DNA of 64,000 nucleotides, from contig CAWJTV010000022.1 in assembly GCA_963845755.1 (NCBI GenBank), forward strand, positions 1 through 64,000, given 5' to 3'. Numbering within the stretch: position 1 is the stretch's first letter; every line of letters starts with the position of its first letter. Of the stretch, positions 1 to 4,672 are shown piece after piece. Origin of the DNA: an uncultured Planctomycetota bacterium (GTDB lineage Bacteria > Planctomycetota > Planctomycetia > Isosphaerales > Isosphaeraceae). Made by a program: the position numbers and the translations under genes. Under the pieces are notes generated by a model, which saw only the letters and a program-made list of their open reading frames with translations, had not been told where the DNA came from and made no database searches.

Positions 1-122
1 GCGTAGAGTCGAGGTGTGGCGCGGTAGTTTAGGTCGAAGTTTGTTTTCCCCTGTTAGCCCGCCCTTTCGTCTGCGGGTGTCCCACCCTCTCGACCATGCC
101 CCGTCTCCACACCCCGCTCATC

Positions 123-155
123 GAACTGGACGTGCGGATCTCCCGCATCCAGCTC
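123..155 (-). ncRNA. Group II intron catalytic domain V
   Basis: 33-nt hairpin GAGCTGGATGCGGGAGATCCGCACGTCCAGTTC with AGC triad and AC bulge, directly downstream of the RT stop codon. Confidence 0.92.
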
Positions 156-182
156 TCGGACAGAACACGTCACTCCCTTCGC

Positions 183-803
183 TCACGAACGGGTTGGAGG
201 CGGAAGTCTTCGGAGCTTCACCAGTCCCAGATCCTGGTACAAGTAACGGCTCGGGTATCGTGTATAGCCCGGCCTGGGCTCCTTGTGCTTCTCACATAAC
301 CAGCGACGAAGCCGGGTCTCCGCGTGGGAGTTCACCACCTGGTAGGCTCGGCCCACTGTCCCGTGACTGAAGTAGTTCCACCATCCCCGCAAGGTCCGGT
401 TCAGGCGGGTGACCTGGTCGGTCACGGAGAGCCACGACGACGACCGGCTGGTGAGATCGCTGATCTCCCGGCAGAGCCGGTGGATCTTCTTCTGCGAGGG
501 ACGGGCTCCCACATAGGACTGGCCCGTCCGGCGATCGTAGCAGCGGCCGAAGCTGTAGCCCAGGAAGTCGAACGTCTCTTCCGGCACGTGGCACTCCCGC
601 GTCTTCGTCTCGTTGACCGTCAGCTTCAGCTTCGCCATCATGGCCCGCATCCGCTCCATCGCCGTTGCGGCGGTGGTCCGGCAGCAGATCACGAAGTCGT
701 CCGCATAGTTGACGATGTGAGCCCTCAGGGTGCGGTCGTGTCCCGCGGTCTTCCAGCCCAGCACAAAGCGTCGCATGTAGATATTCGCCAACAATGGTGA
801 GAT
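183..803 (-). pseudogene. ltrA: Group II intron RT/maturase, C-terminal half (RT motifs incl. YADD, plus X/thumb domain; no HNH endonuclease)
   Basis: ISPLLANIYM...VNYADDFVI...KLTVNETKT...FDFLGYSF...LNRTLRGWWNYF. Confidence 0.93.
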
Positions 804-804
804 C

Positions 805-2449
805 ACGCCCCCAACAATGTTGCGAAGAACCCTGTTGGGGGCCTCCCTCAAAAGGGGACGGACTGACCCGATACACGATGCGGACCTCCTGCTCGTCGAT
901 CTCGACCTTCTTCACCAAAGCCCGAACGATCTCCCGTCGCGTGTCCCAGTCCGGCTCTTGTAACTCCTGGGAAACGCGTCTCGCGAACTCCTCCAACTGG
1001 CCGATCACCAGCCGCAGTTCCGCTTCCTGGTTGGCCTCGTCAATCCGCTGCCGACACTCATCCTCCAGTTTGGCCAGGCGCTCGCGCGCCGCCAAGATCC
1101 TCGGCTCGAATTCCGACTTGTCGAGCAACCCTCGCCGTAGGCATCGATCAATCGCGAGATCATCTTTTTTAGATTCGCAATCAATTTGTTGAGATGCTTC
1201 ACCTCGCGGTCTGGGCCCGTCTCCGGCCCTTGCAGCCGCCGCTCGTACTCCGCCCGAACCCGTTCGGGCTCGGACAAGAGATGACGCACGTCTTCCCAGA
1301 CGGCGGCGTCCAAGACATCCGTGCGGACCTGCTTGTTCCAGCACAGGCGCTGGCCACCGAAGCGATAGGCGTCGGAGCCCGTGCAGCGGTAGTAGGCGTA
1401 GGGGACCTTGCCCTTGGCCGAGGCCCGGCTCACCGGCTTGCCGTAGCAGCCGTAGCCGCACCGCTTGCAGACGACCAACCCCTGGAGGAGATAGCGGCCG
1501 CCACGGGGCCGTTCGCGACGGCGTTGCCGGTTCTCCTCGAGTTGAGCTTGAACCGTCCCGAAGAGTTCCTCGCTCACCAGCCCGGGGACATCGATGAAGA
1601 TTTGTTCTTCCGAAGATGTATCGACCCGAGAGACGGGACGCCGGGGCTGCTCAGGACGGCCGCGTTGCGGCGCGGAGCCGCTTCGGCTTGAGGCGCGCCG
1701 CGCGCGTCTTGCCGAAGCCGGCCGTCCCCTTGTAGGCAGGGTTCCTGAGATACGACCAGATCACCGAGCGGTCCCAGGCCGATTTGCCAGTCCGCGTGGG
1801 GACGCCGTCGCGTTGCAGGCGTCGGCAAACCTCACCGATCGAGCATCGTTCCTGGCCGACCCACTCGAAGATCTTCCGCACGATCCGCGCCTCGTCGGCC
1901 ACGACCTGATAACGCGCCTCGCCGCCGCCCTCATGCTTGCCGACGTAACGGTAGCCGTAGGGCGCGCCGCTGAGCACGTTGACCGAGCCGTGGCGGGCGG
2001 CGTACTGCTTGCCCCGGCGACAGCGCTCCATGATCTTGGCACGCTCGTACTCGGCGATCATGCCCTGGACCTGCAGCGAGCAGGTTCTCCTCGGGTCCGC
2101 GGCCTAGGGGATTGCGCAGGAAGACGACCTCAACGCCGCACCGGGCGAGTTCCTCGAGTATCAAAACCTGATAGGCATATTTGCGTGAAAGTCGATCGGG
2201 ATCGAGGATGTAGAGGCGGTCGATGGTCCCAGCGGCGGCCTGGTCCCGAAGTCGTTCGAGGCCCGGGCGGATCAGGATATCCCCGGTGTAGCCATCGTCC
2301 ACGAAGCACAATTCGGGCTCGCATTCCAAGCCGTCGCTCGCGACGCGCTGCCTGATCGCCTCAAGCTGGCTGGCGATCGTGCCCTCCTTGGCCTGTTGGT
2401 CCCCGGAGACCCGGGCATAGGTCCCCACACGGAGATCGTGATTGAGCAT
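805..2449 (-). CDS. Large serine recombinase (resolvase + recombinase + zinc-ribbon + coiled coil); several apparent frameshifts; no stop codon inside the element
   Basis: Pieces in ORFs 1931-2449 (YARVSG catalytic Ser, DDGYTG, RPGLERLRD, DRLSR), 1651-2061 (APYGY, LRNPAYKG), 1005-1577 (YLLQGLVVCKRCG...YYRC) and 292-1461 (RREIVRALVKKVEI). Confidence 0.9.
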
Positions 2450-2455
2450 GGCTGG

Positions 2456-2669
2456 TCAAGCTCCCCTGGCCTTTGATCGGAGTCCCTGCATCGTTGTGGT
2501 GGCCTGCTCGTTGTCGTTGGATCGCGATCGCGGCCGTTCCAGGTGGCGAGAGACGACCGGGATCAAGGCCTGGTATGCCAGCGCGATCGACTGATCCTGA
2601 AGCCGGGTGAACTCGAAATGGCGGGTGACGGGAGGGCTGAGGGCTGGACCTCCGTTGAGATGTGATCAT
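2456..2669 (-). CDS. Small (about 70 aa) accessory ORF upstream of the LSR, apparently frameshifted
   Basis: GAGGAGGAG RBS precedes ATG at 2669. Rejoined reading MITSQRR...RHFEFTRLQDQSIALAYQALIP ends just before the LSR start. Confidence 0.5.
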
Positions 2670-2823
2670 GTTGACTCCTCCTCACCAAGACCGCGGCTGT
2701 CAGCCTGCCTTGGACGGGGATCGAGCCCGGGCTGCCATCCTTGCCCATACTTCGGTCGGAGCCGCGATCTGGAAATGACAGAGTCAGGGATCAGGGACGA
2801 TTTTGCAACATTGTTGGGGGCGT

Positions 2824-3530
2824 GATCGGCGACCCTTGCGGGGTCCCTTTCCCCTCGTCCTTGTTGCGCGTCGTGCGGTGATGCCGCCCCCGCGCGTCGA
2901 TCTCTTCCACCGGCGTCTCCAGCCACATCTTCAGCAGTCGGAGCATCCGGCTGTCGCTGATGCGTCGGGCCGCCGACCTCATGAGTTCGGGGTGGGGGAT
3001 ACTGTCGAAATAGCCGGATAAATCGGCATCGATCACGTCCGTATGGCCCGCTCGCAGCAACGCCTCGACCTGCCTCACGGCGTCCAGGGCGCTGTGCTCG
3101 GGGCGATACGCGTGCTGTTCGGGTTGCAGGTCCGTCTCGAAGATCGGCTCCAGCACCAGGACAGCCGCCATCTGGACCACGCGATCCTTGATGCAAGGAA
3201 TCCCCAGCGGCCGGAACTTGTCCGATTGATCATCTTTGTGGATGTTCACCCGTCTGACCGGCTGGGATTGATACGTCTCCTTCCGCAGTTCTTCCGTCAA
3301 TTCGCCCAGCCACGCGCTCCAGCCCCTGCGCCTCGATGTCCTCGAAGCTCTGCCCGTCCACGCCCGGTGCGCCGCCATTGGCTTTGCAGCGGTCGTAGGC
3401 GAAGCGGAGGATGTCTTCGCGGTACAGCTTGTCGTAGAGGGCGTAGAAGCGATAGCCCGGCGCAGTCCTTGGCTTTCGAGTGCAGGGCGTCCTGGAGCTT
3501 CCTGACCTTGGGTGGAGGTGTTAGGCTCAT
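2824..3530 (-). pseudogene. ltrA: Group II intron RT, N-terminal half (frameshifted)
   Basis: [17 protein letters not shown]..., [61 protein letters not shown]. Confidence 0.92.
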
Positions 3531-4084
3531 CACCAATCTCCCGGCCGTCGGCGCCTTCGCGTCCTGGGTCCTGAACTGAGGCCCCTTCCCTCCACCGGCA
3601 TTACCCGGCTTCGACGGTACTACGGGCCTCTCCGCCACCCCCGCGCGACCCGGCCTGTCCCTCGCGGGCGTCCGGTTGACGGTCACGCGCCGCCATCGCA
3701 GGGGGCTTCCCGTGTTGCATAGGGTCTCCGTGTGCGGGCATGCCGTCTCCTGTACCCCGGCGGACTCGCTGGGTCCGATCGCTCGTGGGCCGGCGTATTC
3801 CAGCCGGTACCCTGGTCGCCAGCGACGACGGCCTTCCCCAGGACATAGATGGGTCGGCGTCCACGACAAACCTTTCGGGGCCTCATCGGATGTTCACTTG
3901 CGTTACGGCCTGCCTGCTCGCGGGACCGCCAGAGCGGTCCTTTGCATCGAAGGCTTCGACGGTTTCGTGACCTCGACCGCCGCTCCGATTGCTACCGGCT
4001 GGAGCGAACCAGTTGCCGGGTGGGAATTACACCCACTGAAGACCTATACCTTTGCACGGCGCACTATGTCCCCGTTTTTCCCCC

Positions 4085-4426
4085 ATAATCATGAGACGCC
4101 TTGGAACCGACGCGCCGCTCTTCGATCCCGGTGTCTCCCGGCGCCTGTCGTAAGGCCTCTCCATACGTTCCCGAGGGTTCCAAAGCCACCACCAGCTTCC
4201 GGTCCGCCTGGACCTGCTTCAGGACACCAACCAACGTCGGGATCTCCCAGGGGTTCTTGACCCGCCAAGGACGCTCGAACTGCCCATCGGCCCAGCGACA
4301 AATCACCAACAGATCAAACTTCCCGACGTCGATACCCACGGTCACGCCCAAACCCTCCTTTCCGCGGGCGATCTGCTCCCACTTCACCTCGTTGACGCGC
4401 GTGGCACGGTATGCTTTGCTACCCAT
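4085..4426 (-). pseudogene. IS110-family transposase, N-terminal DEDD fragment (truncated after about 114 aa)
   Basis: VGIDVGK...VVALEPSGTYG motifs of the RuvC-like IS110 domain; GGAGG RBS before ATG at 4426. Confidence 0.8.
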
Positions 4427-4517
4427 GGGGATGACCTCCTGCAAGTGCGGTTGCGAGACCTCAACAGTTTCGCCTTGGCCGCCTATCGAGGCATCCCCAC
4501 TTCTATTTCTATAGCCA

Positions 4518-4672
4518 CTACGCTTCGCAGTGGAGGTCACCCGCCACCACGCAAGACTCGCTTCCGGCTGCTGGCTAAGCTTTGCCGGGCGGGATTCGTT
4601 AACCCGCAGGGTTGCAATGAAAGGTTTCGGAGTTCGAGTCTCTTCCTCCCTTCTCGAGCTTGCCTGACGCTA
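4518..4672 (-). ncRNA. 5' fragment (domain I) of a second, different group II intron
   Basis: (TA)GCGTCAGGCAAGC...CAGCCGGAAGCGAGTCTTGCGTGG...CTGCGAAGCGTAG resembles bacterial group II intron 5' regions (recognised from memory, not searched). It stops abruptly at the IS110 left end. Confidence 0.62.

Follow-up and report, generated by a model that had tools for sequence, protein, structure and literature searches.

A 2-kb large serine recombinase element found at the reverse transcriptase motif of group II introns in Planctomycetota and other phyla

Introduction

How does a 2-kb segment that encodes little besides a recombinase come to lie, with perfect ends, inside a gene of another mobile element? 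The question is raised by a 64,000-nt stretch of DNA from an uncultured planctomycete of the Isosphaeraceae (GenBank assembly GCA_963845755.1, contig CAWJTV010000022.1, positions 1 to 64,000), hereafter the window. Near its start, the reverse transcriptase (RT) gene of a group II intron is interrupted by an element that carries a large serine recombinase (LSR) gene. An earlier note, made from the letters of the window, had described this insertion and suggested examining its relatives for an enrichment of split RT genes. We found that the element in the window is probably a decayed copy of a widespread 2-kb mobile element, moved in all likelihood by an LSR, a parasite of another genetic parasite. 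Elements of this kind, about 2.0 kb long and of insertion sequence (IS) size, very probably use the LSR as their only enzyme and integrate site-specifically at the RT motif of group II introns.

Results

Anatomy of the element and the split gene

Direct reading and a repeat search placed a 2019-bp element at 805-2823 of the window, bounded by perfect 19-bp inverted repeats with GATC on each side, in agreement with the earlier note in every detail. The pair returned by the repeat search has arms at 801-826 and 2802-2827 (26 nt, 96% complementary). The parts of the element and its borders are:

801..804, no strand: left GATC, the 4-bp spacer common to element and target; its central AT is the presumed crossover dinucleotide
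805..823, plus strand: terminal inverted repeat, ACGCCCCCAACAATGTTGC, 19 bp, perfect; the minus strand encodes the last in-element recombinase residues, ..QHCWGR (reading of open reading frame (ORF) 292..1461)
805..2449, minus strand: LSR gene, stop-free within the element (Pfam Resolvase, Recombinase and Zn_ribbon_recom; tblastn against an intact relative)
2457..2669, minus strand: small conserved ORF, ..PPVTRHFEFTRLQ...AYQALIPVV.., ending 8 nt before the recombinase start
2666..2821, minus strand: open frame, ..HAPNNVAKSSLIPDSVISRSRLRPKYGQGW..EEEST and stop, within ORF 2666..3196; it continues the recombinase frame only with the element ends joined, as a conserved C-terminal tail
2805..2823, plus strand: terminal inverted repeat, perfect reverse complement of 805-823
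2824..2827, no strand: right GATC (direct reading)

The gene content, an LSR and one small conserved ORF, agrees with the cargo-free, IS-sized element that had been claimed. Further features of an IS in the broad sense are the length of 2013-2019 bp, below 2.5 kb, the perfect 19-bp ends and the copy number, six in this genome and ten in a second one (G001).

The RT gene, read on the minus strand, is split between GTPQGSPI and SPLLANIY. Its N-terminal half ends with ...GGG TCG CCG ATC (GSPI, 2824-2835), and its C-terminal half begins with ATC TCA CCA TTG (ISPL, 792-803). Deleting 805-2823 together with one GATC gives GGG TCG CCG ATC TCA CCA TTG in frame, so that the restoration of the RT frame claimed earlier can be read directly at the junction. 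The host is a group II intron, with Rfam ribozyme domains and an RT/maturase ORF (RVT_1, GIIM):

27..157, minus strand: group II intron domain V/VI (Rfam RF00029, 37.5 bits, just under the 40-bit gathering score)
183..803, minus strand: C-terminal half of the intron RT/maturase, ISPLLANIY... (C-terminal part of Pfam RVT_1, and GIIM)
2824..3378, minus strand: N-terminal half of the intron RT, ..GTPQGSPI (Pfam RVT_1), its frame broken again further upstream
3898..4038, minus strand: group II intron domains I-IV region (Rfam RF02003, 100.9 bits)

Copies and empty sites in the same genome

The genome of the window comprises 14.3 Mb in 49 contigs and contains exactly 12 element ends, which form six full copies without a solo end; this excludes chance. 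Among themselves the other five copies are 98.5-99.9% identical, and the window copy shares 95% identity with them. All six lie at the PQG-x-x-I/SP codons (here and below, a slash marks the insertion point) of group II intron RT genes of the Rfam classes D1D4-4 and D1D4-7, as the enrichment proposed in the earlier note would have it. The occupied RT genes belong to at least three lineages and hold the element in both orientations: the recombinase runs in the direction of the RT in two copies (contigs C22 and C47) and against it in three (C24, C16 and C3). The sixth copy (C6:31938-33952) has on either side the N-terminal half of an RT gene, and the two halves come from different genes, as a rearrangement between two copies would leave them. 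C24 and C16 share a further upstream insertion 65 nt away, which marks them as duplicates of one composite.

Uninterrupted paralogues provide the empty sites, five reading ..GGGATCGTCTCCCCC.. (..GGGGGGATCGTCTCCCCCGCG..) and three reading ..GGGATCATCTCTCC.. (..GGAGGGATCATCTCTCCTGCG..). A third intron RT family has the motif PQGSVASP with GCC as the target codon (DNA ..GGGAGCGTGGCCAGCCCT..), so that its core would be GC, not AT; none of its six copies (C36:45230, two on C34, C42:404946, C7:43974 and C11:967432) is occupied. As a separate observation, C47:4000-22000 (locus L019) forms a local retroelement cluster: one group II intron is present four times in 15 kb, and one of these introns contains the element.

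Relatives in other genomes and metagenomes

A scan of reference genomes, one per species, gave 162 relatives of the recombinase; 79 loci were kept, and both element ends were located in 56. Metagenomes gave more than 543 relatives, with 80 loci kept and ends located in 35. The relatives in reference genomes come from Planctomycetota, Chloroflexota, Gamma- and Alphaproteobacteria, Acidobacteriota and others. Named hosts include Singulisphaera acidiphila DSM 18658 (complete genome), Ktedonobacter robiniae (Chloroflexota) and Azospirillum brasilense, in which a contig of 2011 bp with a coverage of 403 represents the element. Cultured strains whose copies are intact are S. acidiphila DSM 18658, with two copies, K. 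robiniae SOSP1-30 and A. brasilense ATCC 49958. The encoded peptides on either side of the 56 reference-genome elements fell into these classes (N and C, N- and C-terminal RT halves):

N then C: 19 loci
C then N (opposite orientation): 15 loci
N/N: 7 loci
C/C: 2 loci
N/none: 1 locus
no motif: 8 loci
flanks too short: 4 loci

The RT motif stood at the junction in 40 of the 52 loci with readable flanks, when four N/N loci of a sub-lineage with the spacer CATG, whose flanks merely resemble the motif, are counted as uncertain. With RT halves as tblastn queries, the RT lay 0-6 nt from the junction. In metagenomes, 28 of the 35 loci with located ends had the motif at one or both junctions. The RT enrichment extends from the genome of the window to its relatives.

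The CATG sub-lineage (L037, L067, L070 and L090, all in one planctomycete metagenome-assembled genome) reads ..GGCGT CATG ACGCC.. and occurs in both orientations in another repeated sequence, whose flanks are similar to degenerate TPQG coding DNA and to one of the element's own ends. At the remaining N/N loci (L040, L086, L033) and the C/C loci (L025, L035), elements lie between two N-terminal or two C-terminal RT halves. These loci, like the C6 copy, bear the mark of inversions or deletions that involved copies lying in opposite directions in different introns.

In the second genome, G001, ten of the 11 readable copies of one intron were occupied (7 in the plus orientation, 2 in the minus orientation, 1 cut by a contig end), and the sole empty copy reads ..GCACC GATC TCACC... 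The two orientations imply at least two insertion or inversion events.

Viral contigs yielded just four relatives, none of them informative. Plasmids yielded 53 records with relatives of less than 60% identity, whose annotation says no more than 'recombinase family protein'. One of the plasmid loci (L114), on the TOL-type Pseudomonas putida plasmid pWW53 (NC_008275.1, 78913-80510), has a 52%-identical recombinase relative adjoining benA, annotated in pieces under that same name; no RT gene is annotated nearby.

Crossover site, orientation and target

Typical junctions, read in the RT sense, are ..ATC/ACGCC and GGCGT/GATC... We compared three 2-bp registers within the 4-bp spacer for identity at both junctions, among unique pairs and among pairs from genomes and metagenomes:

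central dinucleotide: identical in 24 of 32 unique pairs and 34 of 43 pairs
next register to the right: 19 of 32 and 21 of 43
next register to the left: 13 of 32 and 19 of 43

In most pairs the central dinucleotide is duplicated at the two junctions. The outer spacer bases are complementary in 39 of the 43 pairs (spacers such as GATC, AATT and TATA), which makes the attachment site of the joined ends (attP) palindromic across the family. Of the 34 concordant pairs, 23 have an AT core and the others CT, GC, GT or TG; these non-AT cores match the first two bases of the codon before Ser-Pro. Unique insertions were divided 13 to 14 between the orientations, and those with an AT core 11 (plus) to 12 (minus), the near equality expected from a self-complementary core in a palindromic attP. 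The earlier claim of a symmetric AT centre that allows either orientation agrees with both the best register and these counts.

The consensus of the target attachment site (attB) is GG.AC.CC.CAaGG.GG..t.-[AT]-ctc.CC..TgcTGgC.AAcaT. Its left Gly codons form a G-rich arm and its right Ser-Pro codons a C-rich arm. At positions 5-6 from the core, 74-100% of sites agree with the arms of attP, so that the RT protein motif, which is conserved, is itself a partial dyad resembling attP.

Recombinase, small ORF and a tail across the junction

The recombinase pieces in the window matched the Pfam families Resolvase, Recombinase and Zn_ribbon_recom. The catalytic domain PF00239 gave an E value of 5.7e-17 in the window piece 1931-2449 and 8.9e-29 in an intact relative (L023); PF07508 and PF13408 were found in both the window pieces and L023. 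The protein is intact, with 545-559 amino acids, in 13 of 13 selected relatives. R13, V14 and S15 are invariant in 13 relatives, with the resolvase-type nucleophile serine present, and so are the zinc-ribbon cysteines C327, C330, C357 and C371. Models of named families scored far below their cut-offs (XisF, 115 versus 375 bits; IS607, 30.5 versus 110 bits; CcrB likewise).

The recombinase frame is free of stops in the element and reads through the terminal repeat (..QHCWGR). When we joined the ends in silico, by appending the 4-nt spacer and the opposite end to this frame, it continued for 53-112 codons across the joint in 17 of 19 relatives. The resulting tail, NVAK...(I/V).R..LRP.YG.GF, is conserved across phyla. 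In planctomycete copies the tail frame has no start codon of its own, and 2666-2821 of the window is arranged in the same way; some other lineages have an in-frame ATG after the repeat, and the tail there may be a separate small ORF.

Between the tail and the recombinase start lies the small gene of 65-95 amino acids, with the conserved pattern ..V.FEPSRL....AY..VP...R. Pfam and NCBIfam scans of the small ORF and a Pfam scan of the tail gave no match, and the Atlas gave nothing but unnamed clusters (0.85-0.86). Co-folding the small ORF product with the recombinase gave a score of 0.56 (runs 0.59, 0.56 and 0.54; best of three controls 0.00), on a calibration in which the mark was reached by 116 of 157 complexes of solved structure and by 2 of 215 mismatched pairs, and in which 18 of the 157 complexes and both passing mismatches stood at 0.60 or below. 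The partner had a predicted local distance difference test value of 52 or more, and 69% or more of the contacts were common to the runs. The model gives a faint hint that the small protein may bind the recombinase.

State of the copies

By tblastn against an intact relative, the window recombinase consists of four frame pieces (~2078-2449, 1672-2160, 1128-1670 and 805-1131) separated by three frameshifts. The indels at 1131, ~1671-1697 and 2077 are absent from soil-metagenome relatives of 90-99% identity. The small ORF of the window has an extra base near 2648 relative to the other five copies, which is also a frameshift. The contrast is with the uninterrupted GTC-type copies of the intron RT, of which four out of five could be aligned along almost the entire protein at 100% identity. 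A search for the source reads found no public run with more than 0.22 of the sampled words. Either the copies in this genome are decaying, or they are affected by assembly indels in GC-rich stretches. The window copy is probably dead or dependent on a recombinase in trans, unless its indels are assembly errors.

The N-terminal part of the host RT, at window 3297-3540 (minus strand), does not keep to a single frame either (ORFs 2791-3378 and 3297-3869), so that the intron copy that serves as host is likewise degraded or mis-assembled. Just upstream of the intron 5' end lies ORF 4064-4540 (minus strand), without a Pfam match at E 0.01. With its GIDVGK.. it may be the N-terminal portion of an IS110-type transposase. 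It is overlapped by another Rfam match to a group II intron (D1D4-6, 56 bits, 4449-4598, minus strand). Mobile elements may be nested three levels deep at this site.

A sister family in the same genome

A sister LSR family (~2.0 kb, 67% nucleotide identity, ends ACGGCCCCAACAGTGTGGC) also has six copies in this genome (the C42:185478-187482 region, two on C11, and one each on C18, C13 and C20). It inserts at AGGA between two hairpins (GGCGGCCTGAAGGGCCGC and CCCCGGGTGAAACCCGGGG) that resemble repetitive extragenic palindromic (REP) sequences. All six insertions have the same orientation, and the target core is GG; this asymmetric core contrasts with the AT core and both orientations of the first family. 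A pattern search found 29 empty sites of the sister family in the genome.

Discussion

A proposed cycle

In the cycle that we propose, the LSR would recombine both ends and release a circle, in which the palindromic attP would consist of the 19-bp inverted repeats with a 4-bp spacer, GATC in this case, between them. Integration of the circle would then be site-specific and conservative, the central dinucleotide (AT) being cut with a 2-bp stagger, and the attB would be the DNA encoding the RT motif ..PQG-x-x-(I, V or L)/SP-LLAN.. in the proteins of group II introns. A palindromic attP with a self-complementary AT would permit integration both ways round. The host can dispense with the intron RT gene, which offers a site that is present in many copies and travels horizontally, and on this ground the element would act as a parasite of retroelements. 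The junction-spanning tail and the small ORF may also have parts in this cycle.

LSR recombination is conservative and by itself does not raise the copy number. The occupancy in G001 fits efficient homing into every intron copy, and it equally fits retrohoming of a composite intron with RT supplied by an intact copy. We suggest, tentatively and with more doubt than conviction, that the element gains copies in a copy-and-paste manner inside RT-dead introns retrohomed by RT acting in trans, and that the attachment site, by splitting the recombinase gene so that integrated and circular forms differ, serves as an excision/integration switch without a classical directionality factor.

Evidence that weighs against the model

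Several observations tell against site-specific LSR integration at the RT motif. The first concern the enzyme: ORF listings contain no full-length LSR in any of the six copies or the six sister-family copies, and tblastn resolves a frame change in five of each six. The second concern the target. In 8 of the 52 genome loci and in 5-7 of the 35 from metagenomes no RT motif was seen, the CATG sub-lineage sits in another repeated sequence, and the loci kept were the best-scoring 80 per scan rather than a random sample. Products of excision form a third group. No circle junction or head-to-tail arrangement of ends occurred in 114 loci and the genome of the window, or in 80 metagenome loci; contigs of four soil runs held no back-joint, which contigs would rarely show. 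One soil-run contig (X3; side 33) skips 2023 nt, from 794 to 2818.

The fourth point is the crossover. The central dinucleotide differs by one base in 9 of the 43 junction pairs, and the two copies in a GTC-type intron of this genome fit a TC register better than AT. The mismatches may reflect a tolerated mismatch followed by segregation, or later conversion by paralogues. The GTC-type copies (..ATCGTC/ACGCC and GGCGT/GATCTCC versus empty ..ATCGTCTCC) had suggested a crossover at TC, which was ruled out: ATT-codon targets (..ATC/ and /GATT..) and the AATT and TATA spacers fit only the central register.

Alternative explanations

Could the association with RT genes be one of descent, from a single ancient insertion that was then copied with its intron by retrohoming, with RT in trans? 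The occupied copies in G001, with their near-identical flanks, and the C24/C16 duplicates fit this reading. However, occupied introns belong to different Rfam classes, and RT proteins in the genome of the window are down to ~30% identical to one another. From phylum to phylum the flanking DNA varies, but the ends of the element are conserved. Within one intron family the element is found both ways round, the same introns also have unoccupied copies, and the sister family has moved to a target that is not an RT gene. We consider a single insertion very unlikely.

A domesticated off-switch, reversible and used by host or intron to shut down RT expression, is likewise hard to credit. Precise excision would restore the RT frame, and the developmental LSR switch XisF is among the nearest named families, yet at 115 bits against a cut-off of 375. 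Multiple copies in both orientations and across phyla, decayed copies and retargeted sister lineages fit a selfish element instead, and no regulatory partner was seen.

That the recombinase is a passenger, and that a transposase of another type makes a 4-bp GATC target duplication, is an idea to which we give almost no credence: perfect inverted ends with a 4-bp direct repeat do resemble a classical IS, but no other enzyme gene fits in 2 kb beside a conserved ORF of just 65-95 amino acids, Pfam and NCBIfam reveal no second family-wide protein, and the repeat shared by the junctions is consistently the central 2 bp and not a fixed 4 bp (ATC/../GATT, ATT/../AATA).

Comparison with known systems

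The clostridial LSR transposons Tn4451/Tn4453 (TnpX) and Tn5397 (TndX) are 6-21 kb long, carry resistance cargo, have a GA core and choose their targets loosely. By analogy with these properties, the mechanism of integration at the RT motif appears closest to that of Tn4451 and Tn5397. Shared with them are the LSR as sole transposase, a circle presumed to form from the joined ends, a presumed 2-bp crossover dinucleotide at both junctions and the lack of an obvious separate integrase/excisionase pair. The present element differs in its 2-kb, cargo-free make-up, its perfect 19-bp ends, its palindromic attP and its single conserved coding motif as target. TnpX appeared among our matches only as the PDB chain 2mhc. 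The multi-targeting LSR clade of Tn4451/Tn5397 usually has DUF4368, according to the main text of a preprint by Durrant (bioRxiv 10.1101/2021.11.05.467528). DUF4368 had no match in the L023 recombinase at E values up to 0.1, and this domain and the GA core are two features of those transposons that the present family does not share.

The IS607 family is likewise IS-sized and moved by a serine recombinase. One account (PMC6188088) describes IS607 as lacking terminal inverted repeats and as choosing its targets with minimal specificity. In its transposase the DNA-binding domain stands at the N-terminus, unlike the LSR architecture with Recombinase and zinc-ribbon domains found here.

Serine-integrase elements are known to interrupt genes, as A118 does in comK, skin (SpoIVCA) in sigK and the XisF element in fdxN. 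The present element is like them in that an LSR would integrate within a coding sequence and precise excision would restore the gene. Those elements are single-copy, large and directional and need a directionality factor, whereas the one described here is multi-copy and orientation-neutral and targets a mobile element.

In archaeal SSV1-type viruses, the integrase gene spans attP and is split on integration; the enzyme is a tyrosine recombinase. Here, too, the recombinase gene would cross the attachment site and integration would separate its 3' part. The differences are that the enzyme is a serine recombinase and that only a tail of 53-112 codons is separated.

IS110/IS1111 elements target repeats such as REP or attC. 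They resemble our families in using abundant harmless repeats as landing sites, which the sister family does with REP-like hairpins. Their DEDD transposases are RNA-guided, whereas here a protein would recognise the site.

Full-text literature searches turned up no account of an LSR element within the RT genes of introns. In the main text of the LSR survey preprint (bioRxiv 10.1101/2021.11.05.467528), the terms 'reverse transcriptase', 'intron', 'RVT' and 'palindrom' are absent.

Significance

The palindromic attP, the short natural attB and hundreds of natural variants form a series for studying how LSRs read DNA, and the same series suits the study of how the core dinucleotide sets orientation. 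The recombinase gene that crosses its own junction suggests a possible way of controlling directionality. The finding also bears on the inactivation of group II introns in genomes, given that ten of 11 readable copies of one intron were struck in G001. The family would add a second kind of serine-recombinase IS beside IS607, protein-guided and highly site-specific, with a range from Planctomycetota to Chloroflexota and Pseudomonadota, and it would be a case of one mobile element specialised on a conserved coding motif of another.

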